Under the pieces are notes generated by a model. The model was not told where the DNA came from. It made no database searches and saw nothing but the letters and a program-made list of their open reading frames with translations. Shown in pieces: positions 8,284 to 61,675 of a stretch of 64,000 nucleotides of DNA (its first letter is position 1; each line of letters opens with the position of its first letter). Position numbers and translations under genes: made by a program. This stretch comes from Candidatus Poribacteria bacterium (GTDB lineage: Bacteria; Poribacteria; WGA-4E; WGA-3G), in the NCBI GenBank assembly GCA_028820635.1, contig JAPPIG010000101.1:17484-81483 (forward strand), in the 5' to 3' direction.

Positions 8284-8293
8284 ACTAAAAATG

Positions 8294-8324: not shown

Positions 8325-8362
8325 ATAAAACCACATCAGAGCCATTCCATTGTACTGAAGCA

Positions 8363-8394: not shown

Positions 8395-8451
8395 CAACAC
8401 ATTATACTAACATTTTTCTTTGCTTGATATAAGTATATTAGGAGACATTCT

Positions 8452-9489: not shown

Positions 9490-9574
9490 GACTTTATTTG
9501 TAACAGAACGGTTAGAAAACGCTCCTACCGTGTAGGGTCCAAACTGCATAAGCATGGGCTATAATGGAGACATC

Positions 9575-10615: not shown

Positions 10616-10692
10616 AACGTTGACTTACATTGTGTTTGTTGTTAACACTATCTATTTTGGTTTAAACCAGCATACTATTAAGGAGATTCTTT

Positions 10693-11730
10693 ATGTATAA
10701 AACAGCGATGTTAGGTTGTGGTGGTCGTGCCCGTGCACATGCTGATGCATACCGCTTTGTGAAAGGCGGCAAACTCACAGCGATCTGCGATATGAACGAA
10801 GAACTCCTCAACAAATTCGGAGATGATTTCAGTATCTCTTCGCGTTACACGGATTTAGATGAGATGCTTGAAAAAGAAAAACCGGATGTGCTTCACATCG
10901 TCACGGCACCATTGTTTCGTGATTCAAATGAACGTATTCGGTATCCTTTGATGCAACAAGCATCAGACCACGGCGTACCAGCAGCGATTGTAGAGAAACC
11001 GATTGCCATTGAAAGTGAAGGCTGGAAACAAATTTCTGGGTTAGCAGAAGAGACAAAAACAAAGTTTGTTGTCAATACGCAGCTTAACTTTCATCCACAA
11101 AACCTTGAACTGAAGCAGGACGTAGCAGAAGGTAAAATCGGTGAAATCAAGTTTATTGATGCAACCGCTCTCAGCACACCTGTAGATCAAGGCCCACACG
11201 TGCTTCAGTTAGTTTCATCTTATATTGATAATTCGCGTCCAGTCCGCGTATTAGGGCAAATTTCTGGAGGTGCAAATTTAGATTCTGCGCAGCCATCTCC
11301 ACAATATGCTGCTGCAAGAGTTCAGTATGAGAATGGACTGCATGTCTCTTACGCATTTGGGACAGCCATCGCACCCTTTGGCTCCGATGATCCGAAGGCT
11401 TTCTTTACTAAACGCGTCTTTGTTGTTGGCACAGACGGATATGTGCATTGGCGGTTCAATAGTTGGGAACGTTCGACCAGAGAAGGCGGCTACGAAGGGG
11501 GTCCGCTCAACTACGGGCAGCAGGATGTTGTTGCCCAAGGTAATCTCACCAATGCTGTTTTTGATTGGCTTGATGACGAGAAGAAAGTGCATCCGACACA
11601 TCTCAAGCAATCCCTCGTGGAGTTCAATCTGCTTTTAGGAATATACTATAGCGGTATTACAAACGAGATAATTGAACTTCCATTTGATCCGCCAGATGGG
11701 TTAATGGATTCGCTTAGGGAGCGATTGTAA
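10693..11730 (+). CDS. Gfo/Idh/MocA-type oxidoreductase, tandem paralogue 6 of 6
   Basis: Same motifs as paralogue 1. AAGGAGA Shine-Dalgarno. Confidence 0.85.
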   Translation: MYKTAMLGCGGRARAHADAYRFVKGGKLTAICDMNEELLNKFGDDFSISSRYTDLDEMLEKEKPDVLHIVTAPLFRDSNERIRYPLMQQASDHGVPAAIVEKPIAIESEGWKQISGLAEETKTKFVVNTQLNFHPQNLELKQDVAEGKIGEIKFIDATALSTPVDQGPHVLQLVSSYIDNSRPVRVLGQISGGANLDSAQPSPQYAAARVQYENGLHVSYAFGTAIAPFGSDDPKAFFTKRVFVVGTDGYVHWRFNSWERSTREGGYEGGPLNYGQQDVVAQGNLTNAVFDWLDDEKKVHPTHLKQSLVEFNLLLGIYYSGITNEIIELPFDPPDGLMDSLRERL

Positions 11731-36550: not shown

Positions 36551-39037
36551 TTACCACGCGCGAATTTTGGATAGTTCCGTCTGTTTTTGACACAAACTGG
36601 CGTAAGTGCCATCTTTAGCAATTAACTCCTCATGTGTTCCCATTTCGTCAACCTCACCTTCTTTTAACACGATGAGTCTATCGGCATATTTTAGGGTTGA
36701 CAACCTATGCGCGATTGCAAACACCGTTCTTCCTTGCACGAGCCGTTCCAAAGCCTCTTGGATTTTGGATTCTGTTTCAGTATCAACTGATGAAGTGGCT
36801 TCGTCTAAAATCAGGATTCTCGGATTTTTCAAGATTGCGCGTGCGATAGAGATCCTTTGCCGTTCACCACCAGAAACGCGTGCGCCTCGTTCACCGACCA
36901 TTGTGTCGTAACCGTCAGGGAATTTGATAATGAAATCGTGAGCATTTGCGGCTTTCGCAGATGCGATAATCTCATGCCGAGATGCGCCAGGTTTTGAGTA
37001 GCCGATATTTTCAGCGATTGTGCCTGCAAACAGAAATGGATCTTGTAATACTACGCCAACCTGTTGTCGTAGTGCTTTAAGCCGAATTTCTTTGCTATTG
37101 TGACCATCAATTTCTATTGTGCCTTCATTTGGGTCGTAAAAACGGGTAATTAAATTAATAAGCGTGCTTTTCCCCGCACCACTATGTCCTACCAATCCAA
37201 TCATTTCACCGGGTTGCACTTGGAAACTTACGCCATTTAGGGCGTCCTTTTCGCTATCGTAAGAGAAATAGACATCCTTAAATTCGATGGCACCTCTAAT
37301 ATTCGCGAGTGCAACGGCATCCCTTTTATCTGCAACGCTTGGTGGCGTATCCAAAATTTCAAACACACGTTCTGCTGAAGTGCCTGCTCGGATGAACCTT
37401 TCATTCATTTGGCAGAGGGTATACACGGGTCTAAAGAATTGCATCATGTATGATTGAAACATGAACAGGATACCAAGTGTTAAATCACCTTGAAAAATTT
37501 GCCATCCCCCAACTAACCAGATGATGATAGACCCTGAATAGGTAATAAATTCCATCATCGGACGGTAAAGTGTTCCAAGTTTTGCTGCGTTCATCTCTCC
37601 AGTAAACACCTGATGGGTTAAATCACTAAACCGACTAATCTCATATTGTTCTCGTGCGAATGCCTTGACAACACGCACCCCCGGGATTGTACTTGCCAGG
37701 ATTGTACTGATATTTGCGTACCGTTTCCATAAAACATGGTACACTTTGCTCATTTTTTTGCCAAAAAAGATTGTAAAGATGATAAGACAGGGTATCGGAA
37801 TTAATGTCCATAAAGCAAGTTTCCAATGATAGGAGAACATGAAAGTACACATAAAAAGGATGGTGAAAGTATCGCCGACTATATCTTGTAATCCATTTGC
37901 AACAAAGTCTCTGAGTCTGGACACATCATGCGTGATTCTGGACATCAGATTACCAGTGTCGCGTTCATGAAAAAAGTCAATAGAGAGCGCATTAAGATGT
38001 TCATAGGTCTCATTTTGCAGTCGTCGAGTGACATTCTGTCCTACCCACGCCATCATATACCCACGGATGGAGGAAGTTCCCATGGTAAAGACTCTAAGAC
38101 CTACCATCATAAAAATAATAGCAATTAGGTGTCCAAAACTACCACCGAGTGGCATACTGCCGAACCATCCACCTAACGTGTCTGCTATACCTTGCAATTG
38201 CCCCCAAGATGTTTCTGGCAGTGCTTGATTAGTAGAGACTGCAGTTCCGACTGGCATCAAAATATTGTCGATCAGTTCTTTACTTAGAATAGGTGGGAGA
38301 ACCGCAACAAACCGGATTAACAACATCAATAAAAAAGCAGGAATGATGACATGTAAAAATGGGACAGCATATTTGAATAGACGGAAAATAAGTTTACTTT
38401 TTTTGACACAATTGACGCAGACACCAGACCAACTTGGGATAGGTTCACCGCATTTTTCACATCGGCTTTTATCGCCTCCAGGCTGCGTGCCATTACCACC
38501 ATTACCGCGCCTACCACGCCGCCTGCCGCCTGCGCCGGGACCGCCTCTGCCACGCCCTCCATCACCTGAATCAGCATCCTTAAGTGCAGATAATTTTTCT
38601 AATTCCGAAACAGCAAGGTTGAATTTTGGAGTTAACCTTTTTGAATAGCGTGCCAATTCAAAGGCATTTTCTGAGGTCGTAACCTTGAGTATGTTATTGC
38701 CGTACATCTCAAGGATTTCAATGTCTTCAACGGAGGTGAGGGACACCTCTCGTATGTCGTGTCCAAGGACACCGCTCTGATTGAAAGCAATCAGGCGCTT
38801 ATCTGTAACTAATAGCCAATCTTTTCCATAAGTGCTGTCAAACCGCAGGTCGGTTGAAACAGCAATCTTGATTTCCTCCCCTTTTTCAAGTAGTCCTTGT
38901 GCCTGTTTTTGTAGGAGTTCAGGCACTTCTTCCTTTGTCGTTAACTCGTTATTCCCCTTTTTTCGGCGCGGTTTTCCATTGAAAGACCCCATCCGATGGG
39001 ATCTCCCGCGTCCTGAACTTGACATAGGACCGTGCAT
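36551..39037 (-). CDS. ABC exporter (fused TMD-NBD) with an N-terminal PH-like domain, Gly/Arg-rich linker and zinc ribbon
   Basis: Walker A GHSGAGKST, signature VSGGERQR and Walker B ILILDEATS. A six-helix exporter TMD. The N-terminus has a bacterial PH-like segment (LLEKGEEIKIAV...DWLLVTDKRLIAF), GRGRGGPGAGGRRRGRRGNGGNG and CEKCGEPIPSWSGVCVNC. Confidence 0.8.
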   Translation of the reverse strand: MHGPMSSSGRGRSHRMGSFNGKPRRKKGNNELTTKEEVPELLQKQAQGLLEKGEEIKIAVSTDLRFDSTYGKDWLLVTDKRLIAFNQSGVLGHDIREVSLTSVEDIEILEMYGNNILKVTTSENAFELARYSKRLTPKFNLAVSELEKLSALKDADSGDGGRGRGGPGAGGRRRGRRGNGGNGTQPGGDKSRCEKCGEPIPSWSGVCVNCVKKSKLIFRLFKYAVPFLHVIIPAFLLMLLIRFVAVLPPILSKELIDNILMPVGTAVSTNQALPETSWGQLQGIADTLGGWFGSMPLGGSFGHLIAIIFMMVGLRVFTMGTSSIRGYMMAWVGQNVTRRLQNETYEHLNALSIDFFHERDTGNLMSRITHDVSRLRDFVANGLQDIVGDTFTILFMCTFMFSYHWKLALWTLIPIPCLIIFTIFFGKKMSKVYHVLWKRYANISTILASTIPGVRVVKAFAREQYEISRFSDLTHQVFTGEMNAAKLGTLYRPMMEFITYSGSIIIWLVGGWQIFQGDLTLGILFMFQSYMMQFFRPVYTLCQMNERFIRAGTSAERVFEILDTPPSVADKRDAVALANIRGAIEFKDVYFSYDSEKDALNGVSFQVQPGEMIGLVGHSGAGKSTLINLITRFYDPNEGTIEIDGHNSKEIRLKALRQQVGVVLQDPFLFAGTIAENIGYSKPGASRHEIIASAKAANAHDFIIKFPDGYDTMVGERGARVSGGERQRISIARAILKNPRILILDEATSSVDTETESKIQEALERLVQGRTVFAIAHRLSTLKYADRLIVLKEGEVDEMGTHEELIAKDGTYASLCQKQTELSKIRAW

Positions 39038-39384
39038 AAATCAAACTCCATAGCATTAATTTATACTAAAATTTGGTAAATATGCGAACATCTGCTAATA
39101 GTCGCACTTTGGAAACGGGCGTTCAATGATGTCAAAGTAATTACGGGTTTACTATAAAAGACTTTTCTTTTTAACGAATTTTTGGGGGAAAGGTTGAGTG
39201 AATTTTATTATGCTTACGGAGAGATGGATTTATCTTATGGCGATATTTGCACAGTTTGACTGAGGTTGTCAATGTCTGAAGTGTGGAGAAATATGTTACC
39301 ATAAGCAAGAGCGAGTATCTAATTTCAAATGTAAGGTAAGTTCAGCTTTCAGTTGTAATAACTTTGAAAGTAAGAGTTCTCGGA

Positions 39385-40146
39385 TTAATAGTCTATTACT
39401 TCTAACCCTTGCATCCGCTCAAGTGCAAAGACCCGAATATCTTGACGCAATTCACAGAATCCTTCTACACACAACGTCTGGCCAGAATCTCGACTGTTCG
39501 GTATATTAAATAACCGATCTGGGACAACTGTGCGCGTCATCCACGTCTTAGCGTTCGGCTTCTTATAGTCAAACTGAATTCTCTGATTATTCTCAATAGC
39601 AGATTGGATCTCCTTAACTTGTGGCGCGAACTCTGATTGGGACGGATTCAGGGTAAAACTATCAAAAATATCACCTTTACCGTACATACTGTCATGACAT
39701 ACCTTGCAAATCAATTCGAGATTATCCAATTCGTTGGTTCCGCCTTCACATAAATCAATTTCATGTATCAGATAAACGTCCCGCTCTTCTCCACAACTTA
39801 AGCAAATTGAACCGTTTTGCTGGATGAGGTGGCGTTTGCGCTCATGCCAATCTGGTGGCCAACTCGGCAAGAAGTCATAAATTGAGGTTAAAGTGTTTTT
39901 TAGTTTTGTTAGTTCAGAAGATAAACTTTCAACCTCTTCCTCTGATGCTACTTCTTTATTTGGAACTTCGTCACGCACAAAGAGAGACATAATGAGTTGT
40001 GAACTGTGTTGACGCAAGATACTTTCAATTTCATCTTCCCGTATTTGCAGCTTGAGCAGACAAGAAGTGTGAAGATGATCGCCATTGGACAGCATCATAT
40101 CGTATTCATAGTCTGCAAATTGTTTGCACACGGTACAGTAAGACAT
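39385..40146 (-). CDS. Zinc-finger / HNH endonuclease / WYL-like domain protein
   Basis: N-terminal CxxC...HxHxxC. HNH core CLSCGEERDVYLIHEIDLCEGGTNELDNLELICKVCH. The C-terminus IQFDYKKPN...RTVVPDRLF...LCVEGFCELRQDIRVFALERMQGLEVI follows the WYL-domain pattern. I prefer ATG 40146 (AGGGA 6 nt upstream) over the ORF-track TTG at 40152. Confidence 0.7.
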   Translation of the reverse strand: MSYCTVCKQFADYEYDMMLSNGDHLHTSCLLKLQIREDEIESILRQHSSQLIMSLFVRDEVPNKEVASEEEVESLSSELTKLKNTLTSIYDFLPSWPPDWHERKRHLIQQNGSICLSCGEERDVYLIHEIDLCEGGTNELDNLELICKVCHDSMYGKGDIFDSFTLNPSQSEFAPQVKEIQSAIENNQRIQFDYKKPNAKTWMTRTVVPDRLFNIPNSRDSGQTLCVEGFCELRQDIRVFALERMQGLEVIDY

Positions 40147-40160
40147 TTTCAATCCCTATT

Positions 40161-41765
40161 TTAATTGTCAAAACTTTCTGCTGAGGGACGTTCCTGCATA
40201 ACAGGAATCACATAACTCCGAATCTTAAAATCTTCTATTTCCTCTGTCTCAGCACGTGGTTCTGGATTAGTGCGATGGTCAAAGACAACATAGTACCCTT
40301 CCGTTGCGCTTTCTAATTTGAGATATGATGCAAGTTGCCGCTTACCTTTCTGATAACTTACTTCGCCTCTCCACACTTTTGTCTCCACCACGTATTTTCG
40401 TTGATTATGCGTGATTAATAAATCCATCCTACCGCGCCCTGTTTGCACCTCAATGTGCATAAAGCCGCCTACTAACCGAACAAACTGCTCAAGATACGCA
40501 AGCAGCAGATGCCGACCTACAGATTCTTGTGGTGTATCTGGCACTTGTAGTATATTAAATCCCGCACGTGCGATGAAATCTCGGAAGTTATCAAGCAGTG
40601 CTCCCATTTCTATATGTCCAGTTGTAGAAAGGTAATCGAGAAAGCCTTCGCGGGTGTCTTCAGGCAGATATTCCTGCTCTAACCCGTTCACTGCTGGTTT
40701 GAACGTTTGTAAGATGCAATAAAAATAAATTGGGTTCGCAATTTCACACATGCCATCTGTGCCTTGTTTTATAACGCCATAAGTTGCAAGTTCACTGATA
40801 AGATCGTCGCGAAGATTGAAAGCTGGACCATCATCAGTTGCGGTAATTCTCATCAAGATACTTTCAAAGCGTGGGTTTCTGCGGATATTTGTTGTCAAAT
40901 GGTCAATGTTGGTATTGCGTTCATGAAGCAGCTGGAAGTGTGCTTGTGAGAAGTGATCCATCGTAATTGATTCTGTCTTTGGAATGTCAAGTTCACCAGT
41001 CAGTATTTGTGCGATTCTATTGACAAGGAAAGGTTGTCCTACAGTCTGTTTATGGATAGATTCAATTACCTTTGGCAAAAAGGATTGTCCGACTTCTTCC
41101 GTATACTGCTGTAGGAGTTCATGCACTTGTTCACATGTGAAGTTTGGGAGGTGGAATTCATCTTGAATATTGAAGGGGGAGATAGATCGGTCATAATTGA
41201 GTTGTGCGATACTTTTAACTCCGACAATCCCAACGCTGTGAGGACATCGCGGTTCATCAGAAAGATAAATGTGTCGAAGAGCATATAGGAAATCACTTAC
41301 GGATGTCTGTGGAATACCATCAAACTCATCAATAATGATTACAACCTTGTTCTTTTCTAAAAAATCAGAAAGTTGTTGAAAAAACGTGATCATTGAAAAA
41401 GCATCGGTTAGTTGTGTATTATCAAAAAATAATGTAAGGTTTTCTGAAAGTGTCTTTCCACGCTTCTGAAAGACACTTTCTATCTCCTTGCGCAGCATGT
41501 AGAGGAATCTCTCATAAAAAACGGTAGGAGATATATCGCGCATTACCTGAAAATCCAGGCGAATCGTAAAGTATGTAGTATCTTCAGATGCAAGTGTGTC
41601 AAGAGACCAGCGAAAAAATGTGGTTTTACCAGTCTGGCGCGGTGCGAAGATAACGATATAACGTCCGTCTTTGACGCGGTCAATGAAATCGTCAAGCTCG
41701 GCAGAACGACTGACAACATAATTCTTTTTCGGATGGACGGGACCTTGTGTGCCAAAACGTCTCAT
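40161..41765 (-). CDS. P-loop ATPase (ORC/Cdc6- or AAA_35-like) fused to a C-terminal PD-(D/E)xK nuclease domain
   Basis: NYVVSRSAELDDFIDRVKDGRYIVIFAPRQTGKTT (Walker A) and VVIIIDEFD (Walker B). C-terminal GRGRMDLLITHNQRKYVVETKVW (D...ExK). I prefer ATG 41765 (MRRFGTQGP, AAGGA upstream). The ORF-track start at 41891 overlaps the MlrC gene. Confidence 0.7.
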   Translation of the reverse strand: MRRFGTQGPVHPKKNYVVSRSAELDDFIDRVKDGRYIVIFAPRQTGKTTFFRWSLDTLASEDTTYFTIRLDFQVMRDISPTVFYERFLYMLRKEIESVFQKRGKTLSENLTLFFDNTQLTDAFSMITFFQQLSDFLEKNKVVIIIDEFDGIPQTSVSDFLYALRHIYLSDEPRCPHSVGIVGVKSIAQLNYDRSISPFNIQDEFHLPNFTCEQVHELLQQYTEEVGQSFLPKVIESIHKQTVGQPFLVNRIAQILTGELDIPKTESITMDHFSQAHFQLLHERNTNIDHLTTNIRRNPRFESILMRITATDDGPAFNLRDDLISELATYGVIKQGTDGMCEIANPIYFYCILQTFKPAVNGLEQEYLPEDTREGFLDYLSTTGHIEMGALLDNFRDFIARAGFNILQVPDTPQESVGRHLLLAYLEQFVRLVGGFMHIEVQTGRGRMDLLITHNQRKYVVETKVWRGEVSYQKGKRQLASYLKLESATEGYYVVFDHRTNPEPRAETEEIEDFKIRSYVIPVMQERPSAESFDN

Positions 41766-41853
41766 TTTGTTTTCCTTCATCTGTGGTATCTTACAAAGAC
41801 AAGGATACCACAGGAAGAGTCGGTTGTCAAGAGTCGTGTAAAAGAAGGTCTTT

Positions 41854-51416: not shown

Positions 51417-52271
51417 ATGGATAGGTTAGATATTGTCCTTGTTCAACGCGGTTTTGCTGAAAGTCGTCTCCAAGCAAAGCGTTTAATTTTTGCAGGTGCA
51501 GTCAAAGTAAACAACAATTCAAACCTAAAACCCGGACAACGCATACCACTTGACGCTGAAATTGAGGTTGAACATCCGCCAAAATATGTCAGTCGTGGTG
51601 GATTAAAACTTGAAAAAGCATTACAAGATTTTGACATAACCGTCCAAAATAGAGTAGCGATTGATGTAGGTGCTTCCACAGGTGGTTTTACCGACTGCTT
51701 ACTCCAACACGGTGCAGGTTTCGTTTATGCGGTTGATGTCGGGTATGGTCAACTTGCATGGAAACTTCGCAAAAACCCGCGCGTGCACGTACTTGACAAA
51801 ACCAATATCCGCTACATTGACCAACACCTATTTTCACATCCACTTGACATTGCAGTGATTGATGTGTCTTTTATCTCCTTACGAAAAGTGTTGCCTGTTG
51901 TGATTGAAAAGTTAGGCGTATCGGAGATTATCGCTCTCGTAAAACCACAGTTTGAGGCAGGGCGCAACCACGTTAAAAAGGGCGGCATAGTTGACAACCC
52001 AGACGTCCATAAAGTAACTTTGGGTAATTTGATTGAATTTGTACAGCAAAATTTTGCAGTAATACCTTTCGGATTAACCTTTTCACCGATTCATCAAGAT
52101 ATAGGTAATATTGAATATCTCCTCTGGCTGCGTAAATCCACGACAGCAACACAATTTGAATCTGGATTAGAAATCCTAACTACAATAGATATGGATTTTG
52201 TCAGTGATGTAGTTAACACCGCGCACGACGCGTTTTATGTTAACAGCGTAGAAAAATCGGAACAAGAATGA
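51417..52271 (+). CDS. tlyA: TlyA-family rRNA (cytidine-2'-O)-methyltransferase
   Basis: S4-like start RLDIVLVQRGFAESRLQAKRLI and the FtsJ-type SAM motif IDVGASTGGFTDCLLQHGA. Confidence 0.85.
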   Translation: MDRLDIVLVQRGFAESRLQAKRLIFAGAVKVNNNSNLKPGQRIPLDAEIEVEHPPKYVSRGGLKLEKALQDFDITVQNRVAIDVGASTGGFTDCLLQHGAGFVYAVDVGYGQLAWKLRKNPRVHVLDKTNIRYIDQHLFSHPLDIAVIDVSFISLRKVLPVVIEKLGVSEIIALVKPQFEAGRNHVKKGGIVDNPDVHKVTLGNLIEFVQQNFAVIPFGLTFSPIHQDIGNIEYLLWLRKSTTATQFESGLEILTTIDMDFVSDVVNTAHDAFYVNSVEKSEQE

Positions 52272-55200
52272 TGAAAAGACAAAAAAGAGTATTTATTTCA
52301 ATACCTCTAATTACGCTACTCATCGGAATCGTTGGATATTTCTATATCAGTTCAGATTCCTTCCTAAATAATTTCATAAAACCTCGTCTTGAAGAAGCTC
52401 TTCAAAAACAGGTCAATAAAAAACACACTGTGACATTTGGCGAATTGAGTGGCAACATCTTTACCGGTGTTGAAGTCGAGAATTTTAGGATAGAAGACGA
52501 TGAAAAATTGCCTATACTCTCCACAGATGAGATAGTCCTGAAATACTATTTTTGGGGTCTACTACAACGCAAATTTCTTGTAACTACGTTAGAAATTAAC
52601 TCCCCAGAGTTTAACTTAAGGCGCAATTCGGCTGGACAAGTTAATTTAACGCAGGTGTTTCGGGAATCTTCACAAGATTCGGATGCGTCTTTCGCATTTG
52701 CAATTTCCAAAGCTGCTATTAATGGCGGGAAGATTCTTTTTACAGATACACAGCAAAACATTAAATTAAGTCTACCAGATATTGACATTGAGTTACAGGG
52801 TAGGTTAGAAAAATGGGATCATACAGGAAAACTCTCTATTGGTAAAGGGGATTTTATCCTAAATGGAACCGAATTGCCAATTGGGCAGTTGACGGATATA
52901 GATTTTTCTCTTTCAGTGAAAAGTGGTCAATTATTGGAATCACTCAAACTGCAATTAGGTAACTCACTATTAGAAGTACAGGAATTGAAAAAGAATTGGG
53001 ATAGCGGAAAATGGAATACGCTTGTAGAGATAACGATTGATGCGACAGATGTGCAAAAGTTTCTTGGTAACGACACGCAACTTGCAGGATTTGGCAAAGT
53101 TAAATTGGATTTAAATGGAACAGATTCAACTTTAAATGGAACACTTATAGGCACATCTGAAGCACTTTCAATCAAGCAATTTCCAACAGATTCATCTGAA
53201 TCCAAAACAAGACAAATTGATATTGCGAATCTTAAGATTGACACTACGCTGAATTTTGCGGAAGTTGCGGGGATGACGTTAGAAGAATTCACTGCAGAGG
53301 TCGCTGGTGGTACACTTTCTGGAAGCGGTCGTGTCACATTTGACAATAACTCTGAAGGTAATCTAATTGAGCGATTACAGCATTTTGTCAAACAACCTAT
53401 TACCTATGATAGTAAATGGGATATTTCAGACGTTCAACTTAATTTGCTATTGGTAATGTTTGGAGAATTATCAAAACAAATACCGCAACTTGAATCTGGG
53501 ACATTTACAGGCACAGCGTTAATAAATGGCAATACTACAAGAGATTTTCATCTTGATAGCAGTGTGAAGCTTTCAGATACCCGTTTTCTTATCAAAGACG
53601 AATCTATACCTTTGAACGACTCATCGCTGAATTGGAAAATATCTTCGGAACATACGAATGGTTCAAATATCAGGATAGATGGCACAATTGATAATACAAA
53701 CGTTGATATTAACGGATCTTTTGATAGATTTGATGTTCAACTTGAGAATGTTGACTTTGGGAAACTATCAAGAATTTTAAATTCTGTGCCTTTCAAAGGT
53801 ATTGGAAGCATTACTGCAGAAATAAAAAAAGATGGTACTGCTACTGGGCATGTAGAAATGCCTGAAGCATTCTATTGTCACAGCGATGAGGACCCAATCC
53901 CACTTGGTCGTTTAGCCGGAAATTTTCGATATGAAAATCGGGTTGTGTATTTTGAAAACGCACATCTGACAAAACAAGGTGGTACAAGCGTTTCCATTGA
54001 AGGTAATATTGGTATAGATGGTAAATTACCTGCGAGTTTTAGCATCGTCGCTGATCCGCTTGTGTTGGATGCTGACTATAACAAACTCTTTTTTACTGTA
54101 GTCTACCCCATTGAAGGTGATATAAAGGGGGAATTAAATTTATATGGTCACCTCATTGACCATCTTGATGGCAGCGGCAATTTTGTTGTTAATTCTGGAA
54201 ACGCCTGGGGCATCAATTTTGATCCTGCAACATTGCAATTAGAAATTGACAATTACTCACTCGCCATTCCCGATTTTGTAATACCGACACGCGGTCAACA
54301 GGTTATTCTTAATGTCAATGTAGAAAGTAATGGTGATTTTAACTTCACTGTAAAAAGTAGTAAAGACAAACCGGTTCAATTAGTTGAACTTGCACGCGCT
54401 GCAGACATCACCGATTTTCCACTTGATGGCAAAATGAGTGTTAACGTTGAATCATATCAAAAAAAGCCGCAAGACCTCGTATTTACAACAAAATTTATTT
54501 TTACAGATCTCACCTTTGAAGACAATTCGCTTGGCGATGCCTATCTGGACGGCATTCTCATAGAAGAAAAAGATCACTTTGAATTTACCGGCAAAGGACT
54601 TGCTGGAACAACTGATATTGAGGGTACAATCAGTAATGCCTTATCTAATCCATACAAGTTTTTCCTTAAAAGTGAAAAAACTGCGGCCCCTCCGATTCTA
54701 CGCATTTTTCATCCTGCCCTTGATGCAATTACTGGCACGATTGATAGTATTGTAAAAATAGAAGGCACAATTACTGAGTTAGTCGAACCTGCAAAAAAAA
54801 GTGTTCATCCTTATGATGTTGACATAGTTATCAACCAGACTCTACTTCAGTACAATTCCTTACGTTTTACAAATTCCAAGACGATACGTCTAACTTTAGA
54901 AGATGATATTTTGACGATTTCTGACAGTTCGCTCTCTGTGAATGGTGAGGAATCTCCATTCATTCAACTCACTGGTACCATTGATACAAAAACCGAGAAG
55001 ATTGATCTTTATTCCAAACATAATCAAATATTAACACTGGAATCTCTCGGGACAGCATTAGGGTTTCCCATTTTGGGTAATGTTCATTATGATTTAAAAA
55101 TAAAAGGAACGTTCAGTGATCCTATTGTTGATCTCAAATGGACAATACCAATGTTAATTCAGGAAACCGAAATAGGGAAAATCAGTATAAGTGACGCAAA

Positions 55201-58200
55201 CGGTGAAATAAAATTTCAAGATAACACACTACATATCAAACCTTTTCAAATGCTAGTCCTGAATAGCCCGTTCGAGATAGGCGGAAATATAGTAATTGAT
55301 GAAAATGAATTTAACAATTCCAAACTAAATTTTAAAATCATAAGCGACAATCTTGATTTAGCAAAGTTGTCAGATTTACTCAGGAAAAGTCTGCCCGTTG
55401 AGACAGTGAAACGCCTTACGTCTAACAAATCTGCCTTAATTGCAGGAAATATTGGGGCTGTGCTAAATGTGGCAGGAACCGTTACTGAACCTATTGTTGA
55501 TTTAAACACACATACAATTGAAAATCACCCTATTCGTCTTGGTGCATTTGCAGAACCGATTACACTGAACAAATTGCGCGCACTAACTACTATTAGAAGG
55601 CAATCAATGCAAATACAGGACTTAATTGCCAATGGACAGATCGGAAAAGGCATATTTCAGATAAATGGTGACACTCTATTTTCAACCAAAAACAGAGACA
55701 AAATGACGTTTGACTTAGATATGTCTGTTGAGAAACTGGAGGTAGGAGATTTTATAACGTTTTACCAGCAAACTTCTCCCTTAAGTGGTACAGTGAGCGG
55801 CTCTGTGAAGTTAACAGGAACAGGTTTCACCAGCGATCTTTTAACAGCAATATGTAAAATAAATGAACTCAATTTACAAGCACATGATTATAGAATTTAT
55901 AATACCGTACCTATAGACTTCAAATTGAAAAATAATAGCGTTACTACTCTTCTTCCCTTACAGATTGAGTCTTCTGCACTGGGATCCGCAGTTAAAATTG
56001 GTTTTGATGGTCCGCTTACTATGCCAAACATCACAGCGAAATGGCAGGGAACTTTCAAACACCCTTTAAAGCAAGCAACAAATTCACCTCTACAGTGGAA
56101 CGGTAATGCTGAATATGCAAACAAACAGATAAAATTGAGAACTGAACTAACTACTAACGGTGATAATTTAACCCTCAACGGAATAATTCCCTTTGATCTC
56201 ACTTTGGTACAGATCGATTTCTCAGAACGATTCCTTGAAGCACCTATAGAGGTACATCTTCGCAGTAATGAACTACCATTTACTTTTTTCCCAGGTATTG
56301 ATGCTGTTTTTTCGGAGACAGGAGAAGGTGTTGTGGATATTGATTTGACACTTCAAGGCACGACGCGAACGCCATATTTACAAGGGAATGTTAATTTGCA
56401 GGCTCCAAAAATCGGTTTCAAGAATTTCAGTCAATCCTTTGAGAATGTTACAGTCCAACTCAAAGCACGTAGAGGTGTTCTTGAGTTGGCAAAGTTTCAA
56501 TTTGATATAGAGGATGGAACTTGTAATCTTGAACAAAGTGAGTTGGAGCTTGATGGTTTAACTCCGAAATTTTTCTCGGCAAAAGGATTGTCAATAAAAC
56601 AGTATCCTCTCGGTACAATTCTGCGACAAGCACTACCTCAAGATATCTTTGAAGATGTGAATGGAAATGTAGCAGCTACGCTTAGGGAATTGAACATACC
56701 GCTTAAAAACTTTTTTGAAAGTGGCGAAAAATTCCCAATTCCGAAAATACGCGAAAAAATCTCTTTTGACGCTCTCACTCAGGTAGCAACAGCGGATTTT
56801 ACCATTGATAACATTTCCTTGGGTTTTACTATTACTACCTTAGATCAGCAATTCATTTTTGAAAATCCAGAACCCATTCCGATAACGTTAGGAAATGCTG
56901 GCACATTCACGGTCAATGGATTTAAGTTCGAAAATACTCTTCCAATTTCTTCTGATATAGCAGCGGATCCGCTTGTTTTCAGCTGTTACGGTAGATGGAA
57001 CATACAAGGTGATATATTTGCCAACCTGAAACTGGACAATTTCAATATCTCTATTTTAGATTCACTTTTACCTACGGAGTTTCGTGAGGCATATCAGAAG
57101 AAGGGAATGCTATCAACGACCATTGACATCAAAGGTTCTTATGCAGCACCTGAAATAACAGTGAAGTGTGTTGGACATGAACTTGCTATCAATAAAGCAA
57201 ACATTGATGAATTCTTTGCAGAACTACAATATAGTCCTGATGACCAACAGTGGACAATTTCTGATAAGTCTATCTTGAGATTTGGCGGGAATCAGCTCTC
57301 TTGCTCAGGGCATGTGCCTTATTTGCTTTCCTTATCTAACCTTCAAGCAAAACCGCTCTCCGAGGAAATGGAGGTTGAGATCGACTTTAAATTGGAGGAA
57401 CTTGAAATTTTGCATCTTTTGGAACCTCTTATTCAATCTGCAAGTGGAATAGGTTCAATCAATGCAACAGTCAGTGGAACGCCACAAGCCCCACGACTTA
57501 AAGGCGAGGGAAAATTTTCAAAACTTAAACTCTCCATCTCCAGTTCGCCTGTTTACTTTGAGAATACTAACGCACAGTTTGATTTCACTGAATCAAAACT
57601 TGAAATCATAGCCATTGAAGGTGAATTGAACAGTGGTGATTTTTCTGCAAGAGGTGAAATTGCCTTAAATTGGTTTGAAATAGATGATATTAACCTTGTA
57701 GCCAATTTAACAGACTGCACCTTTACCCAACCGCGTTTGTACGAGATCAACATAAATTCTGATGAGTTACGTCTACATGGAAAAATTGCAGATATGATTC
57801 TGGAGGGGCATATTAGAATCGACTCAGGGTACTACCGACAGGATTGGAATTGGGAAGACGTACTTAATGCTTTTTCTGCTGGTATTGTCCGAGAAGCAGA
57901 TCTATTCTCGTATGCTCCACTCTTGCGCGAACTTGACTTAGATGTAGATATTGATATACCAGACAACTTTCACTTACGTTCATCTACTGGTGGAAACACT
58001 GACATTGAAATCGCTTGTAGCGGTCAAATCACAGGTGCGTTTCAGGAACCACTTTTTACGGGTAATGTTTCCATCCTCAAAGGGAAAATTGGTATCATTA
58101 CACAGGTTTTTGAAATTGTAGGGGATTCAACGATTAGAAACTCAAGCACGACTGCCTTCAATCCAGAACTAAATATCTCCCTTGAAATTCCGAACCCAAT

Positions 58201-58558
58201 CCGTGGTGTCTTACTTAGAGACGGAAGCACAGCAGATCTAAAAATTACCGCAACGATAACTGGTATTCTCGAAAACGGCGATATTGACAAAGCGAAGCTT
58301 AATTTACATGCAGAACCACTTAATTCCTCCACAACTGAATTCTTGACAGAAGCAGATGTGCTTGCGCTCCTTTTACCGGGTAACTTTTTTTCACGATCAT
58401 TTGGCGGAATCACCTTCACTATTTCATCTGGTTTTGATCCCAATGAGCGCCACATTATTGCAGAATATCCATTACCTAAAAATATGTCCATAAAAGTAGA
58501 AGGTGATGAAAAGGGTGAAGTTGGCGTAGATATTCAACTGTTGGAGCGGCGATTCTAA
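52268..58558 (+). CDS. Giant TamB-like translocation and assembly module protein
   Basis: 2096 aa. N-terminal membrane anchor, long beta-rich repetitive body, and a C-terminal DUF490-like end (...NISLEIPNP...ITATITG...YPLPKNMSIKVEG). The start overlaps the tlyA stop (ATGA). Confidence 0.7.
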   Translation: MMKRQKRVFISIPLITLLIGIVGYFYISSDSFLNNFIKPRLEEALQKQVNKKHTVTFGELSGNIFTGVEVENFRIEDDEKLPILSTDEIVLKYYFWGLLQRKFLVTTLEINSPEFNLRRNSAGQVNLTQVFRESSQDSDASFAFAISKAAINGGKILFTDTQQNIKLSLPDIDIELQGRLEKWDHTGKLSIGKGDFILNGTELPIGQLTDIDFSLSVKSGQLLESLKLQLGNSLLEVQELKKNWDSGKWNTLVEITIDATDVQKFLGNDTQLAGFGKVKLDLNGTDSTLNGTLIGTSEALSIKQFPTDSSESKTRQIDIANLKIDTTLNFAEVAGMTLEEFTAEVAGGTLSGSGRVTFDNNSEGNLIERLQHFVKQPITYDSKWDISDVQLNLLLVMFGELSKQIPQLESGTFTGTALINGNTTRDFHLDSSVKLSDTRFLIKDESIPLNDSSLNWKISSEHTNGSNIRIDGTIDNTNVDINGSFDRFDVQLENVDFGKLSRILNSVPFKGIGSITAEIKKDGTATGHVEMPEAFYCHSDEDPIPLGRLAGNFRYENRVVYFENAHLTKQGGTSVSIEGNIGIDGKLPASFSIVADPLVLDADYNKLFFTVVYPIEGDIKGELNLYGHLIDHLDGSGNFVVNSGNAWGINFDPATLQLEIDNYSLAIPDFVIPTRGQQVILNVNVESNGDFNFTVKSSKDKPVQLVELARAADITDFPLDGKMSVNVESYQKKPQDLVFTTKFIFTDLTFEDNSLGDAYLDGILIEEKDHFEFTGKGLAGTTDIEGTISNALSNPYKFFLKSEKTAAPPILRIFHPALDAITGTIDSIVKIEGTITELVEPAKKSVHPYDVDIVINQTLLQYNSLRFTNSKTIRLTLEDDILTISDSSLSVNGEESPFIQLTGTIDTKTEKIDLYSKHNQILTLESLGTALGFPILGNVHYDLKIKGTFSDPIVDLKWTIPMLIQETEIGKISISDANGEIKFQDNTLHIKPFQMLVLNSPFEIGGNIVIDENEFNNSKLNFKIISDNLDLAKLSDLLRKSLPVETVKRLTSNKSALIAGNIGAVLNVAGTVTEPIVDLNTHTIENHPIRLGAFAEPITLNKLRALTTIRRQSMQIQDLIANGQIGKGIFQINGDTLFSTKNRDKMTFDLDMSVEKLEVGDFITFYQQTSPLSGTVSGSVKLTGTGFTSDLLTAICKINELNLQAHDYRIYNTVPIDFKLKNNSVTTLLPLQIESSALGSAVKIGFDGPLTMPNITAKWQGTFKHPLKQATNSPLQWNGNAEYANKQIKLRTELTTNGDNLTLNGIIPFDLTLVQIDFSERFLEAPIEVHLRSNELPFTFFPGIDAVFSETGEGVVDIDLTLQGTTRTPYLQGNVNLQAPKIGFKNFSQSFENVTVQLKARRGVLELAKFQFDIEDGTCNLEQSELELDGLTPKFFSAKGLSIKQYPLGTILRQALPQDIFEDVNGNVAATLRELNIPLKNFFESGEKFPIPKIREKISFDALTQVATADFTIDNISLGFTITTLDQQFIFENPEPIPITLGNAGTFTVNGFKFENTLPISSDIAADPLVFSCYGRWNIQGDIFANLKLDNFNISILDSLLPTEFREAYQKKGMLSTTIDIKGSYAAPEITVKCVGHELAINKANIDEFFAELQYSPDDQQWTISDKSILRFGGNQLSCSGHVPYLLSLSNLQAKPLSEEMEVEIDFKLEELEILHLLEPLIQSASGIGSINATVSGTPQAPRLKGEGKFSKLKLSISSSPVYFENTNAQFDFTESKLEIIAIEGELNSGDFSARGEIALNWFEIDDINLVANLTDCTFTQPRLYEININSDELRLHGKIADMILEGHIRIDSGYYRQDWNWEDVLNAFSAGIVREADLFSYAPLLRELDLDVDIDIPDNFHLRSSTGGNTDIEIACSGQITGAFQEPLFTGNVSILKGKIGIITQVFEIVGDSTIRNSSTTAFNPELNISLEIPNPIRGVLLRDGSTADLKITATITGILENGDIDKAKLNLHAEPLNSSTTEFLTEADVLALLLPGNFFSRSFGGITFTISSGFDPNERHIIAEYPLPKNMSIKVEGDEKGEVGVDIQLLERRF

Positions 58559-61500
58559 ATGTGTAAATTTGGTTTGAACCATACGCTAAAATCCTTGTCT
58601 GTTTGTTTGGTTAAGGGAAGTATATTTTGTGGACTAATACCAATAGTTCTCTATTTTTTTACCGTTGAACCTCTCTTCGGAGAAGTTACAGACACCTCTC
58701 AATTCCTTGATTCCTCACCTGAGATCTTCCAACAAAAGAAAGTTGTTAAAATTGAATATCTCATTGACGACCTCCCTGTAACAAATATTGAGGCACTTGA
58801 TAGTCTTAAAAAATTAACCAATGTAACGAATAGTTCACAGTTTTCGCGTTATGCTATCCAACAAAGTGTTAGTTCACTTTTTTTGTCACAAAGGTTCTCG
58901 CAGATTGATGTTTACACCTTACAAACACCTGAAGGGGTTGTGCTGAGATTTGATTTAAAAAATGTGATGCGCATCCAAAAAATTAAGATAACAGGTGAAC
59001 TGCCTGATGAACTTAGACAAGCAATCCGTGCTGCGATAAAATTGAAACTTGGGGCACGGTATGTACCCGTAATTGGTAAAAAAGATGTAGATTCTATCAA
59101 GCTGGTGTGTGCTGAAAACGGTTATTTTGATGCTGAGGTCAAAGAGAATACAATTGCTTCTGATGGAAGTTTAATATATCAGGTTGATTTAGGAAATCCT
59201 ACGGTTATTAAGAGTTTTAAGATTCTGGGTAATTCGGCGATATTCTCAGAACAGATTAAATCAATATGTAAAACCAGTGACGGAAAAGTTTATCGTAGGT
59301 CTGTTTTAGACAAAGATATTGAGAAAATTCGTGAACTTTATAGGAAGAAGTACTATCCGAGTGTAGAAATTGTTTCAACCTTTGCACATAAAACTGGCGA
59401 ATTGGAACTTGAAATAGTTGAAGGCACACAATTATTGCTTGATTTTGTAGATGAGAACGGAAAACCGATTATTCAAGACTCTCCGGTTCGCAATTTTTTG
59501 GCAAAATTAGGTATTAACACAAAAGAATCTGAAAGAGATCGACTCAGAGGCGAAATAACATTTTTAATAAATAACCGTCCTTTGTGGGAGGAAACCGTAC
59601 AAGATCACTTTGAAGCGGAGGGGTACCACGGAACCGAAGTAAAATCAAAGGTATTAACCAATTCTCCACTCCATGTTAAATTTACTGTTTTGCGGGGTAT
59701 CCGATATATAGTAACTGATGTTACATTTTCTGGAAACAACGCTTTTTCTGATGAGGAGTTGTTGCGCGAGATAGAGATGAAACCTCACCGTTCCATCTCT
59801 CGCCTCTTTCGCAAGCGTATTTTTTCTCAACAGACGCTTTTAAGAGATATACAACGTTTAACGATTTTATATGAAAAAACTGGATATCCTGATGCTGTGT
59901 TAAAGTTACCAATTCCAGAAAAACAGAGTTCTAATAACCGAAATTTTGGCAAAATTAAGATACATTATACGATAATTGAAGACCACAAAAAAGTGATTAA
60001 TCGTTGTCTGTTTAGTGGAAATGAGGTGTTAGACACGACTACGCTCCTGAATGCTTTGCCGAGTAAATCTCAAGAACCCTATGCACGGCTTATTCAGAAA
60101 AATTACGAAAACGCAATACTTAAAGCATATCAAGATCGGGGTTACATAGATGCAGAAATATTAGATACACAATACCTACACAAAACAGACGCACCCGTTT
60201 TTCAGATAGAAGGTAATTTTTCTGAACAATTGGATTCATGGACGCTGCCGGAAAAATTACGAGATGCATTTAAAAAACACAATTTATCGCATGCTGGAAC
60301 GTCTATTGCTACAAACATAGATGAAGAGTGGAGTATTCAAGATTTTGATGGTAACGCTCGTTATACGCTTGAGCAGGAAAAGAAGCATCTGTCAGTTTAT
60401 GAACACGGTATTTTACGATTTGAAATTTCTGAAGGAGCTCAAATAGTATTTGGCACGTTCAGTTTTGTAGGTGATACTGGGGTTAACACAAACATACTAA
60501 ATCGCGAGATTACGCATCTTCGGGGTGCCCTTTATACCCCAGACAAGTTAAGTCAAGCTATCCAAAACCTCTACAGTACGGGAGTTTTTGAACCTGGAAT
60601 CCGTGTAGGAGAACCTATAATTCCAACAGATTTTGACAGTCAACCAAGTTTTTCTTCAACACAACCGATAGTCAGAGATGTAGCAATTCTACTTCAAAAG
60701 AGGGCCCCACGCTCATACGGTGCAAGCATTGGTTATAGTTCTTCAGACGGACCACGCGGGACGATTGCCCTAAGCCATCTTAACCTCTTCAAACGAAATA
60801 TACGATTTCGATTACGCGGTAGAGGTGGAACACTCGGCTACCTCTATGATACGATTTTAACTGAACCTTGGCTCATAGGCAGAACAAGTGGTAGTTTGCA
60901 ATTCTTGGGAAGAAAATTGGAAGAAGACGACGGTGTTAGAGCACTACAAGGTAGTTTTAGTCTCAGTAGAAAGTTATCCAGATCACATCGACTCAATCTA
61001 CAATACAGTTTTCGTGATTTAAAAGATACTTCTGTGGCACCTCTGATTCCAAACCCATCAACTACGGTTAGCAGTCTTCGTCTCTTATGGAGACAAGATA
61101 GTCGTGTGCCATCTCTTAATCCAACATCTGGCATGTTAAACGAGGTTACAGTGGAATATGCGGGAGGATTTTTAGGTGGAAAAAGCAGCTTTACTAAAAT
61201 TATAACTGACACCCGCTATCATAGAAAACTAAGCGCACGTGGCCCTGTGTTAGCAACTGCCCTCCGATTAGGTTATACCCCAGGTCTCCAAGCTAAAGCT
61301 GGCAGCGATGCAGAACTAATTTCTTTTGAAAGATTCTGGGTAGGAGGCAGTACAACAGTTCGAGGTTATGAGGAACGGGGACTTGGACCTGAAGATATTA
61401 CTGGAAAACATCGGGGAAATGTGCAGTTCATCTTTAATACCGAATTGCGTTTTCCAATTTATACACCAATTGATGGGGTTTTGTTTTTTGATGCTGGCAA

Positions 61501-61675
61501 CGTATGGGACACTGCAAAAGATATTGAGTACGAATGGTTGCCTTCCTCTTTAGGTGTAGGTCTGCGATTAAACTTGGGGCCTCTTGTTGGAGGAATAGAT
61601 TATGCTGTGCCACTCATCTCTGTGTCTGGTGTTTCAACAGAGGTTTTCTATTTTCGCGTTGGTAGCACATTTTAG
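58559..61675 (+). CDS. Omp85-family (BamA/TamA-like) outer-membrane protein assembly factor, unusually long
   Basis: 1038 aa. Several POTRA-like repeats (e.g. IKITGELP..., FKILGNSAFSEQ..., VTFSGNNAFSDEEL..., CLFSGNEVLDTT...). The C-terminal barrel has RVRGYEE..GP, FFDAGNVW and a terminal Phe. The ATG immediately follows the tamB-like stop. Confidence 0.75.
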   Translation: MCKFGLNHTLKSLSVCLVKGSIFCGLIPIVLYFFTVEPLFGEVTDTSQFLDSSPEIFQQKKVVKIEYLIDDLPVTNIEALDSLKKLTNVTNSSQFSRYAIQQSVSSLFLSQRFSQIDVYTLQTPEGVVLRFDLKNVMRIQKIKITGELPDELRQAIRAAIKLKLGARYVPVIGKKDVDSIKLVCAENGYFDAEVKENTIASDGSLIYQVDLGNPTVIKSFKILGNSAIFSEQIKSICKTSDGKVYRRSVLDKDIEKIRELYRKKYYPSVEIVSTFAHKTGELELEIVEGTQLLLDFVDENGKPIIQDSPVRNFLAKLGINTKESERDRLRGEITFLINNRPLWEETVQDHFEAEGYHGTEVKSKVLTNSPLHVKFTVLRGIRYIVTDVTFSGNNAFSDEELLREIEMKPHRSISRLFRKRIFSQQTLLRDIQRLTILYEKTGYPDAVLKLPIPEKQSSNNRNFGKIKIHYTIIEDHKKVINRCLFSGNEVLDTTTLLNALPSKSQEPYARLIQKNYENAILKAYQDRGYIDAEILDTQYLHKTDAPVFQIEGNFSEQLDSWTLPEKLRDAFKKHNLSHAGTSIATNIDEEWSIQDFDGNARYTLEQEKKHLSVYEHGILRFEISEGAQIVFGTFSFVGDTGVNTNILNREITHLRGALYTPDKLSQAIQNLYSTGVFEPGIRVGEPIIPTDFDSQPSFSSTQPIVRDVAILLQKRAPRSYGASIGYSSSDGPRGTIALSHLNLFKRNIRFRLRGRGGTLGYLYDTILTEPWLIGRTSGSLQFLGRKLEEDDGVRALQGSFSLSRKLSRSHRLNLQYSFRDLKDTSVAPLIPNPSTTVSSLRLLWRQDSRVPSLNPTSGMLNEVTVEYAGGFLGGKSSFTKIITDTRYHRKLSARGPVLATALRLGYTPGLQAKAGSDAELISFERFWVGGSTTVRGYEERGLGPEDITGKHRGNVQFIFNTELRFPIYTPIDGVLFFDAGNVWDTAKDIEYEWLPSSLGVGLRLNLGPLVGGIDYAVPLISVSGVSTEVFYFRVGSTF

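Follow-up and report, generated by a model that had tools for sequence, protein, structure and literature searches.

The window analyzed here is a stretch of 64,000 nucleotides (nt) from a genome of Candidatus Poribacteria, a sponge-associated lineage (assembly GCA_028820635.1, contig JAPPIG010000101.1, positions 17,484 to 81,483 of the forward strand). It contains two neighboring open reading frames (ORFs), both on the minus strand and only 14 nt apart, that encode a predicted ATPase with a C-terminal nuclease domain (gene 1) and a predicted HNH nuclease with a C-terminal WYL domain (gene 2); every named close homologue of both genes also comes from Candidatus Poribacteria. We hold with moderate confidence that these are two adjacent, probably co-transcribed candidate immunity nucleases, each a self-sufficient module, whose cooperation would be facultative at most. 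The features of the two genes are as follows, numbered by position in the window.

41802 to 41830, minus strand: promoter-like site (TTGACA, 17 nt, TATCCT, with a TG extension) within the 88-nt spacer from the MlrC stop to the gene-1 start; a consensus match only, with a putative function.
40161 to 41765, minus strand: coding sequence of gene 1, 534 amino acids (aa), with an ORC/Cdc6-like AAA+ ATPase (AAA_35), a helical/winged-helix middle and a predicted C-terminal PD-(D/E)xK nuclease; from the ORF, Pfam, a structural model and conservation.
41619 to 41645, minus strand: Walker A motif APRQTGKTT, residues 41-49 of gene 1; G46, K47 and T48 are invariant in 85 copies.
41361 to 41540, minus strand: helical insertion, residues 76-135, located between the two Walker motifs; by entropy over 85 paralogues, no other part of the family varies as much.
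41319 to 41345, minus strand: Walker B motif VVIIIDEFD, residues 141-149; in 85 copies D146 is invariant and E147 is found in 98%.
40191 to 40523, minus strand: predicted PD-(D/E)xK nuclease domain, residues ~415-525, with candidate catalytic residues E439, D448 and E461-x-K463 (core 40377-40451); from conservation and the model.
40147 to 40160, minus strand: intergenic spacer of 14 nt, aatagggattgaaa, which includes an AGGGA Shine-Dalgarno-like ribosome-binding stretch; from the sequence.
39385 to 40146, minus strand: coding sequence of gene 2, 253 aa, with a zinc ribbon, long helices, a YPPDW-type HNH module and a WYL domain; from the ORF and profile searches.
40060 to 40137, minus strand: N-terminal zinc-binding motif C4-x2-C7...H26-x2-C29 of gene 2; all 35 Poribacteria sequences have it unchanged, and its conservation in a 55-sequence alignment of the wide family is at least 90%.
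39679 to 39867, minus strand: SWPPDW leader and HNH module, residues 94-156 (C115-x2-C118, I127-H128-E129, N142, C147-x2-C150-H151, Y155); from alignments and profiles.
39397 to 39618, minus strand: WYL domain, residues 177-250, with R205, R234, R238 and R244 invariant; Pfam WYL (PF13280), 45.8 bits against a cut-off of 21.8.

Gene 1 starts with the ATG at 41765 and stops with the TAA at 40161-40163; gene 2 follows from the ATG at 40146. We take 41765 as the start of gene 1 because a longer ORF, reaching 41891, overlaps the MlrC gene, and because the homologues, which are 528-545 aa long and begin at MRRFGTQGP, agree with it in length and start. A ribosome-binding stretch, GAAGGAAA, precedes this ATG, and the spacer upstream of gene 1 is 75-81% conserved across four orthologous loci. 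No terminator-like site was found between gene 1 and gene 2, and the 14-nt spacer has no room for one, which makes co-transcription likely. Pairwise ratios of nonsynonymous to synonymous substitution rates (dN/dS) are 0.12-0.13 for gene 1 and 0.15-0.18 for gene 2, compared with 0.13 for MlrC and 0.07 for the neighboring ABC exporter; these values show that both are functional genes under purifying selection and not chance ORFs.

Gene 1 matches the Pfam family AAA_35 (PF14516) over residues 16-255 with 56.4 bits against a cut-off of 27; it also passes AAA_22 with 33.6 bits, above the cut-off, and has weak matches to Orc1/Cdc6 (TIGR02928 and PDB 2qby). Given the score and the intact Walker A and B motifs, we assign it to the AAA_35/ORC-Cdc6-like AAA+ proteins. 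A Foldseek search with the AlphaFold model of gene 1 (mean predicted local distance difference test score, pLDDT, 72.9) returned generic AAA+ matches, including RuvB and RFC, together with Avs4 at a low template modeling score (TM-score), and was not decisive. Per-position entropy over 85 family members and paralogues singles out one clearly variable segment, the insertion at residues 76-135, which forms three helices in the model (80-101, 108-115 and 122-135). In AAA+ proteins of the ORC/Cdc6/DnaA-type initiator clade, the DNA-contacting initiator-specific motif sits where these residues lie in gene 1, and the insertion is a candidate specificity determinant.

The C-terminal motif GRGRMDLLI...KYVVETKVW corresponds to residues 443-465 of gene 1. 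Nuclease profiles score below their cut-offs here (PDDEXK_9, 19.7 against 25.5 bits; NERD, 18.7 against 22.1; PDDEXK_3 also below), and PADLOC gives weak matches to PDC-S54, PDC-S26 and LmuA. E439, D448, E461 and K463, however, are 100% conserved in the 85 family members, the model has an alpha-beta-beta-beta-alpha-beta core at residues 416-496 with pLDDT of 83-93, and some homologues pass PF08011 (PDDEXK_9) in precomputed annotation. It is because of these invariant residues, the modeled core and the PF08011 matches of homologues, beyond the sub-threshold score, that we predict a nuclease of the PD-(D/E)xK superfamily. The precomputed annotation of gene-1 homologues also lists AAA_35 together with PF28130 (DUF8371).

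Domain calls for gene 2 come from profile searches; its AlphaFold model was left out of the fold search because it is poor (mean pLDDT 59.8, below 50 in the WYL region). The WYL domain is the best-conserved part of the protein, with R205, R234 and R238 invariant family-wide, and both its score and these basic residues place it among WYL domains. The closest solved WYL domains are those of Pif1 helicases (8bnv/8bns, E 4e-15) and PafBC (E 1e-11), which bind single-stranded DNA (PMC9964779); the WYL domains of PafBC and DriD sense single-stranded DNA in DNA-damage responses (PMC9964779, PMC12041258). No helix-turn-helix (HTH) family was found in Pfam or NCBIfam scans of gene 2.

The HNH module is less regular. 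In Pfam, HNH scores 20.6 bits, just under the cut-off of 21.4, but the family profile matches the HNH domains of IscB (E 2e-9) and McrA (E 3e-9), and the module, including its leader, is homologous to that of ZorE (hhalign 97.6%, E 4e-12). Across the wide family the motif reads LHxHHxxPLSKGGSNxxxNLxLLCxxCHxxxHG and follows YPPDW and the N-terminal CxxC...HxxC. Gene 2 of the window keeps the zinc cysteines, the general-base His128, N142 and H151; in contrast, the canonical His127 is replaced by Ile and His155 by Tyr, and the CxxCHxxxH tail of the wide family reads CHDSMY. Across the Poribacteria clade, the four cysteines and His128 are kept, His127 is Ile, Val, Leu or Gln in 52 of 52 sequences, most sequences have Tyr, Phe or Cys in place of His155 and about half have Tyr in place of His151, and a Glu or Asp has been gained at position 129 in all sequences except one. 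These alignments indicate that the HNH site is partly degenerate in Poribacteria, with two or three of its four histidines lost; with this loss and the acidic residue at position 129, catalysis may be weakened or remodeled.

An earlier note, made from the letters of this DNA alone, had already read much of this architecture: two same-strand genes 14 nt apart, a P-loop NTPase with Walker A and B motifs and an AAA_35/ORC-Cdc6-like N-terminus, a C-terminal PD-(D/E)xK motif and, in gene 2, a zinc-finger-like N-terminus and a WYL-like C-terminus. All of these hold up in the searches described above. The HNH core that it had proposed stands as a fold, given the matches to IscB, McrA and ZorE, but not as a canonical active site.

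We next consider where each family occurs. Scanning one genome per species gave at least 580 gene-1 loci, nearly all of them stand-alone or in tandem arrays; we analyzed the neighborhoods of the best 80. All 80 are from Poribacteria, with several copies per genome; the chromosome OZ220722.1 alone supplies 5 of them. Gene 2 is present at 9 of these 80 loci and absent from the rest. Gene-1 copies form tandem arrays of two to four, including two copies at locus L077 (7001-10272) and four at L078 (7001-13795), the latter directly after a type ISP restriction-methylase gene. Other paralogues occupy conserved sites, namely between miaA/mnmA and recQ (12 loci), between a gene for a SIS-domain protein and one for a sodium:solute symporter (8 loci), and adjoining a transketolase-like gene (6 loci). 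In four species a paralogue lies between hsdS and hsdR of a type I restriction operon (L093, L101, L114 and L118, ~2500-8600 in each). The only plasmid matches are distant full-length homologues, 26-30% identical, in Cyanobacteria, Thermotogota and Bacteroidota (plasmids of Pseudanabaena, Nostoc, Marinitoga and Haliscomenobacter); the Marinitoga homologue adjoins a type I restriction-modification system. A literature search for AAA_35, PF14516 and PDDEXK_9 found no functional study of the gene-1 family.

The gene-2 family is also large. An exhaustive search returned 1052 cluster representatives (E ≤ 1e-3), of which 259 reach E ≤ 1e-10, from many phyla; most are 250-300 aa long and many align over their full length. 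HNH-WYL fusions were listed, uncharacterized, by Makarova et al. 2014 (PMC4012209), and we found no functional study of one in the literature. Using a degenerate DNA pattern, we retrieved 18 wide-family loci outside Poribacteria, from Deltaproteobacteria, Shewanella, Halomonas, Gracilibacteria, Chloroflexota and others. Their neighbors are unrelated to one another (an IS240 transposase, DprA, FliR, HisF, SLATT_6 and a PLD-like gene), and in a further case, P0378 from a Caulobacteraceae genome, an RNase T-like gene and glyQ adjoin; a gene-1 relative is found near none of the 18. Taken together, the searches place gene 2 as a Poribacteria-specific branch of a stand-alone family with a zinc ribbon, a coiled coil, an HNH module and a WYL domain.

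Within Poribacteria, we compared 53 loci with gene 2, with adjacency and HNH residue counts made on 52. Gene 1 lies directly upstream of gene 2 as a full-length gene at 24 of the 52, as a truncated gene at 6 and as a frameshifted gene at 1. Gene 2 is intact at 13 loci that lack gene 1. At three further loci gene 1 or a fragment of it lies downstream instead, and in L019 and L020 the order is inverted, with gene 2 before gene 1. (L019 also holds, at 10471-10590 between two gene-1 copies, a 44-residue fragment of a second gene 2, from its C-terminal WYL part.) The opposite loss is seen at L117, L135 and L148, where gene 1 is followed directly by a DarT-macro gene with no gene-2 remnant. In one genome (contig CBDANF010000003.1) an MlrC-Zorya-gene 1 arrangement (L083) lies ~1.9 Mb from a gene 2-ABC exporter-DUF1854 arrangement (L015), and both genes are intact; another genome carries a second, solo copy of gene 2 (L007, L016). 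As read from these loci, the adjacency is essentially one ancestral juxtaposition, after which either partner was repeatedly lost and the other remained intact.

The site itself is a hotspot for defense genes. In context A, that of the window's clade, the order is MlrC, an optional insert, gene 1, gene 2 and the ABC exporter. In several relatives the insert is a type II Zorya system (ZorA2, E 6e-70; ZorB2, E 5e-74; ZorE2, E 4e-50, by PADLOC and Pfam), which lies between MlrC and gene 1 or adjoins a type IIG enzyme and is complete at L002 (2244-6300), L010 (3148-6239), L037 (1-2250) and L079 (464-3633). In context B, the pair is preceded by an opposite-strand type IIG restriction-methylase gene and a DUF2280 gene and followed by genes for a DarT-macro and a heparinase-like protein. 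L040 combines both arrangements: it has MlrC upstream, as in context A, and DarT-macro downstream, as in context B. In context C, gene 2 lies without gene 1, together with Uma2 nucleases, between genes that we identify from sequence as nuoD-like and nuoE-like; this islet (L004, L013, L014, L049 and L050, ~4000-11100) interrupts the NADH dehydrogenase operon and at some loci includes a putative DNA methyltransferase gene and a putative small HNH gene. Among the neighbors, PADLOC and Pfam also confirm REase_MTase_IIG (E 1e-252), DarG (E 6e-42; the longer forms include DarT), Uma2/PDC-S03 and a Cas-associated PD_DExK gene. This locus and several gene-1 paralogues thus adjoin Zorya II, type IIG, type I restriction-modification, DarTG and Uma2 genes, as expected of a defense island.

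The DUF2280 gene of context B (L021-L048; for example L022, 9647-10384) encodes an acidic protein of ~245 aa with a weak DUF2280 match that often precedes gene 1; PADLOC gives no match for it.

In the window, the flanks are of another kind. An M81/MlrC peptidase gene directly abuts gene 1 on one side, and a bPH_3-ABC exporter gene with a DUF1854 partner lies on the other, beyond a 347-bp gap (39038-39384). The earlier note had described unrelated metabolic and transport flanks and a non-coding gap. The length of the gap is real, but it is not empty:

39234 to 39314, minus strand: relic of a DarT-macro (DarTG-like) gene, reading YFSTLQTLTTSVKL in frame where intact genes have MFFSTLQTLTISVNL at the start of the macro domain; from a 35-nt motif and tblastn.
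39149 to 39205, minus strand: conserved non-coding core upstream of the ABC exporter gene, a leader or promoter region that does not belong to the cassette; 78-90% identical in ten related loci.

The leader core is also conserved at loci that lack an adjacent gene 1 or an adjacent gene 2 (L015, L047). The relic lies where other Poribacteria have a DarT-macro gene directly after gene 2. Its 35-nt motif was found at 14 loci, each time on the strand of gene 2, and lies downstream of gene 2 at 12 of them; of the others, L098 re-fetches one of the 12, and L135, which has no gene 2, has the motif inside its DarT-macro gene. The tblastn match alone is weak (62% over 21 aa, E 0.14), whereas zero chance matches to the motif are expected in the window. 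A structured RNA or terminator was considered for the gap and rejected: Rfam gives no match, the gene strand has no terminator-like site, and the conserved motif is a coding relic. Together with the islands of relatives, the relic indicates that the defense island has eroded in this genome, leaving only gene 1 and gene 2 between housekeeping flanks. The description of the flanks is thus true of the window because of this erosion, but not of the site, where relatives carry defense genes. The presence of Zorya II, type IIG and DarT-macro genes at the same site in relatives, with the relic here, supports a defense role for the two genes.

The ABC exporter (36551-39037, minus strand) has a bacterial PH domain (bPH_3) at its N-terminus and, in a low-complexity stretch rich in Gly and Arg, a CxxC...CxxC motif; the DUF1854 gene is next to it. 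Its homology to relatives begins only at residue 19, and the true start may lie downstream of 39037.

We read the pair as two neighboring modules, and not as one two-gene system, because each gene also occurs alone. From their domain content, catalytic-residue conservation, purifying selection, distribution and island context, we infer the following biochemical activities and a defense phenotype. In gene 1, the AAA+ module would bind DNA or another cue of the invader, with the variable insertion as the likely specificity element, and ATP-dependent assembly would license the C-terminal PD-(D/E)xK domain to cut DNA, a mode resembling that of ATP-dependent restriction enzymes and nuclease-bearing Avs/STAND proteins. 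In gene 2, the WYL domain would use its conserved arginines to bind single-stranded DNA, like the WYL domains of Pif1, DriD and PafBC, and in this state position or switch on the ZorE-like HNH module. If the two cooperate, single-stranded DNA or nicks produced by one protein may feed the other, or the ATPase may work with the HNH protein as in Septu; either would be facultative.

Several observations weigh against this reading, some because they speak for coupling and others because they bear on the defense role. Coupling would be expected if this were a genuine two-component, Septu-like system, in which sensing or remodeling of invader DNA falls to the gene-1 ATPase and sensing of single-stranded DNA or a nucleotide signal to the gene-2 WYL domain, both nucleases act jointly and the operon is selected as a unit. 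The genes are on the same strand with 14 nt between them here and 17-35 nt, or an overlapping stop and start, in orthologous loci, so that a spacing of 14-35 nt or an overlap is kept in about 30 species, and the immediate upstream position of gene 1 at the loci counted above points the same way. The pair has survived a change of flanks (contexts A and B, and L040) while Zorya, restriction-modification and DarTG genes come and go, and the gene-1 copies next to gene 2 form orthologous clades of their own, distinct from the array paralogues. In six species, moreover, a nuclease-less gene 1 (357-408 aa) with intact Walker motifs is kept beside gene 2, with dN/dS of 0.11 in five of the six, which amounts to Septu's ATPase and HNH logic.

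Against a two-component system, all of this adjacency can be traced to one juxtaposition and one local inversion (L019, L020), with no independent replication. The absence of gene-1 neighbors from the sampled HNH-WYL loci outside Poribacteria and the absence of gene 2 from more than 90% of gene-1 family loci argue the same, as do the frequent clean loss of either partner and the genome in which the two lie far apart. In addition, across the Poribacteria gene-2 loci the state of the HNH motif has no association with the presence of gene 1. We therefore think a two-component system possible but, on this balance, rather unlikely. The earlier note's view of a sensor, an NTPase and two nucleases in one compact system is not supported by these distributions: each family mostly stands alone and the adjacency has essentially a single origin. 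Within Poribacteria, about 30 of 52 gene-2 loci have the pair and the site is a hotspot; in the loci sampled outside the phylum the pair was never seen.

A bolder proposal is that the AAA_35-DUF8371-PD-(D/E)xK proteins are a widespread class of single-gene, ATP-dependent immune nucleases whose specificity is set by the insertion and whose 5-10 or more paralogues per Poribacteria genome resemble a repertoire of innate receptors; at this site, one paralogue would have recruited a single-stranded-DNA-sensing HNH-WYL protein as a second, cooperating effector, with the nuclease-less ATPases depending on it. We regard this proposal as doubtful.

The remaining points against the reading as two immunity modules concern defense itself. 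The case for defense is one of guilt by association, and housekeeping genes flank the sites of many gene-1 paralogues. Both genes evolve about as slowly as their housekeeping neighbors and keep their positions, which is atypical of defense genes with fast turnover, and the literature yielded no experiment on a member of either family. A non-immune role would fit these facts, with gene 1 as a lineage-specific expansion for symbiont DNA metabolism or host interaction and gene 2 as a repair or damage-response nuclease that responds to single-stranded DNA. Parallel expansions of AAA-ATPase/PDDEXK_9 (DUF1703) genes are found in Cardinium and Rickettsia symbionts, and one symbiont has a 25-copy DUF1703 expansion of unknown function (PMC6387759). 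Many gene-1 paralogues occupy conserved sites among housekeeping genes, including one beside recQ, and the family as a whole shows strong purifying selection and conserved synteny; the DNA-damage role of PafBC and DriD, and Pif1 as the closest solved WYL relative, fit as well. However, the gene-1 family lies repeatedly within or beside restriction-modification, Zorya and DarTG genes, and the HNH-WYL family is patchy across phyla, with 2 of 10 sampled loci adjoining a candidate conflict-type gene (SLATT_6, and the PLD-like gene, the latter only suggestive). No signal peptide or other sign of secretion was seen, with no search aimed at it. On this evidence, we judge a non-immune role improbable.

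A further idea, that gene 1 is selfish and mobile, alone or together with gene 2, as a single-gene transposon or a homing-type nuclease would be, is largely refuted, and we would be greatly surprised if it held: copies are dispersed in each genome, often as single-gene insertions between unrelated genes, and one Pseudanabaena strain has homologues on several plasmids, but the paralogues share at most about 15 nt of flank (the ribosome-binding region) and no terminal repeats, the copies are old (median identity 67%, none near-identical), the sites are orthologous from one species to the next, gene 1 has no linked transposase or integrase, and none of 50,697 phage records has a match. An insertion sequence-like element is ruled out, because no flanking DNA beyond that short region is common to the paralogues. 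A phage or plasmid origin was likewise rejected, since HNH-WYL proteins have no full-length match in phage or plasmid collections and gene 1 has no phage matches and only the distant plasmid ones.

If the reading as two immunity modules is correct, the locus nominates two uncharacterized effector families. Of these, the ATPase-nuclease family is of greater interest; few gene families in sponge-associated Poribacteria have expanded as much as this one, which has hundreds of loci and which Pfam lists only as a domain of unknown function. The HNH-WYL protein would couple a nuclease directly to a WYL sensor, which would set it apart from the WYL transcription factors that have been studied. In addition, a natural series exists at the locus (the full pair, a nuclease-less ATPase with HNH-WYL, and either gene alone) that could show how defense modules become coupled. 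The expanded ATPase-nuclease family and this series of configurations, rather than the pair itself, are the most valuable lead. Should the defense reading prove wrong, the analysis would still have described a large family of conserved paralogues, of unknown function, in a symbiont phylum that is uncultured.

Two other regions of the window, both on the plus strand, are recorded here for completeness. Seven tandem ORFs of 344-353 aa lie at 3657-11730; they are presumed paralogues from size and arrangement alone, and the first one scanned is a GFO/IDH/MocA-type oxidoreductase. The region 52268-61675 encodes two proteins, the first of 2096 aa with an N-terminal DUF748 match (it may be TamB-like) and the second a POTRA/Omp85 protein of 1038 aa; the two may be an outer-membrane assembly pair.

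Compared with known systems, neither protein has a named-system match in PADLOC-DB 2.0, in agreement with the earlier note; the matches are limited to the WYL domain and to P-loop and nuclease motifs below 18 bits. Septu, with which that note had compared the pair, is similar in having a P-loop ATPase gene followed by a same-strand HNH nuclease gene in a defense island, and the nuclease-less variants of gene 1 reproduce its ATPase and HNH logic exactly. In contrast, PtuA is of the ABC/AAA_15 type, and gene 1, as had been proposed, is not: it is ORC/Cdc6-like AAA_35 and usually carries its own PD-(D/E)xK domain. PtuB lacks both the WYL domain and the zinc ribbon of gene 2, the two genes are far more often alone than together, and neither protein matches PtuA or PtuB in PADLOC at E ≤ 1, which sets the pair apart from Septu.

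For gene 1 alone, the DUF1703 proteins (AAA-ATPase_like, PF09820, with PDDEXK_9, PF08011) are alike in pairing an N-terminal AAA-type ATPase with a C-terminal PD-(D/E)xK domain in ~500-550 aa, in being stand-alone genes with large paralogue expansions in host-associated bacteria (PMC6387759), and in being likewise uncharacterized in function. Unlike these, gene 1 matches AAA_35 and scores below the cut-offs of both DUF1703 domains (AAA-ATPase_like, 15.6 against 26.1; PDDEXK_9 as given above); judged by these profiles, it is a family separate from DUF1703, now covered by Pfam DUF8371. Avs4 and other STAND proteins also combine a P-loop NTPase, a winged helix and a PD-(D/E)xK-type effector in one polypeptide (for Avs4, Foldseek E 2e-4), and the implied logic, an NTP-dependent assembly that activates a nuclease, would be the same. 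Avs proteins, however, have 1000-2000 aa, large C-terminal sensor repeats and an N-terminal effector, whereas gene 1 has 534 aa, a C-terminal nuclease and no repeat sensor, and the TM-score is 0.26 by the query and 0.12 by the target.

For gene 2, a related defense protein is ZorE of Zorya II, whose HNH module is homologous, including the YPPDW leader and the CxxC...CxxCH zinc site, and whose system occupies the same island in several Poribacteria. Gene 2 differs in having a zinc ribbon and a WYL domain, in lacking the N-terminal region of ZorE and in the partial loss of its HNH histidines; with no ZorA or ZorB beside the pair in the window and a whole-protein E of only 0.043 to ZorE in PADLOC, it does not belong to Zorya II. 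The WYL domain with its conserved arginines is shared with BrxR, CapW, PafBC, DriD and Pif1, of which BrxR and CapW also occur in defense islands. BrxR, CapW, PafBC and DriD are transcription factors with an N-terminal winged HTH, and gene 2 stands apart from the BrxR/CapW type: in place of an HTH, its N-terminal half consists of the zinc ribbon, the helices and the HNH nuclease module.

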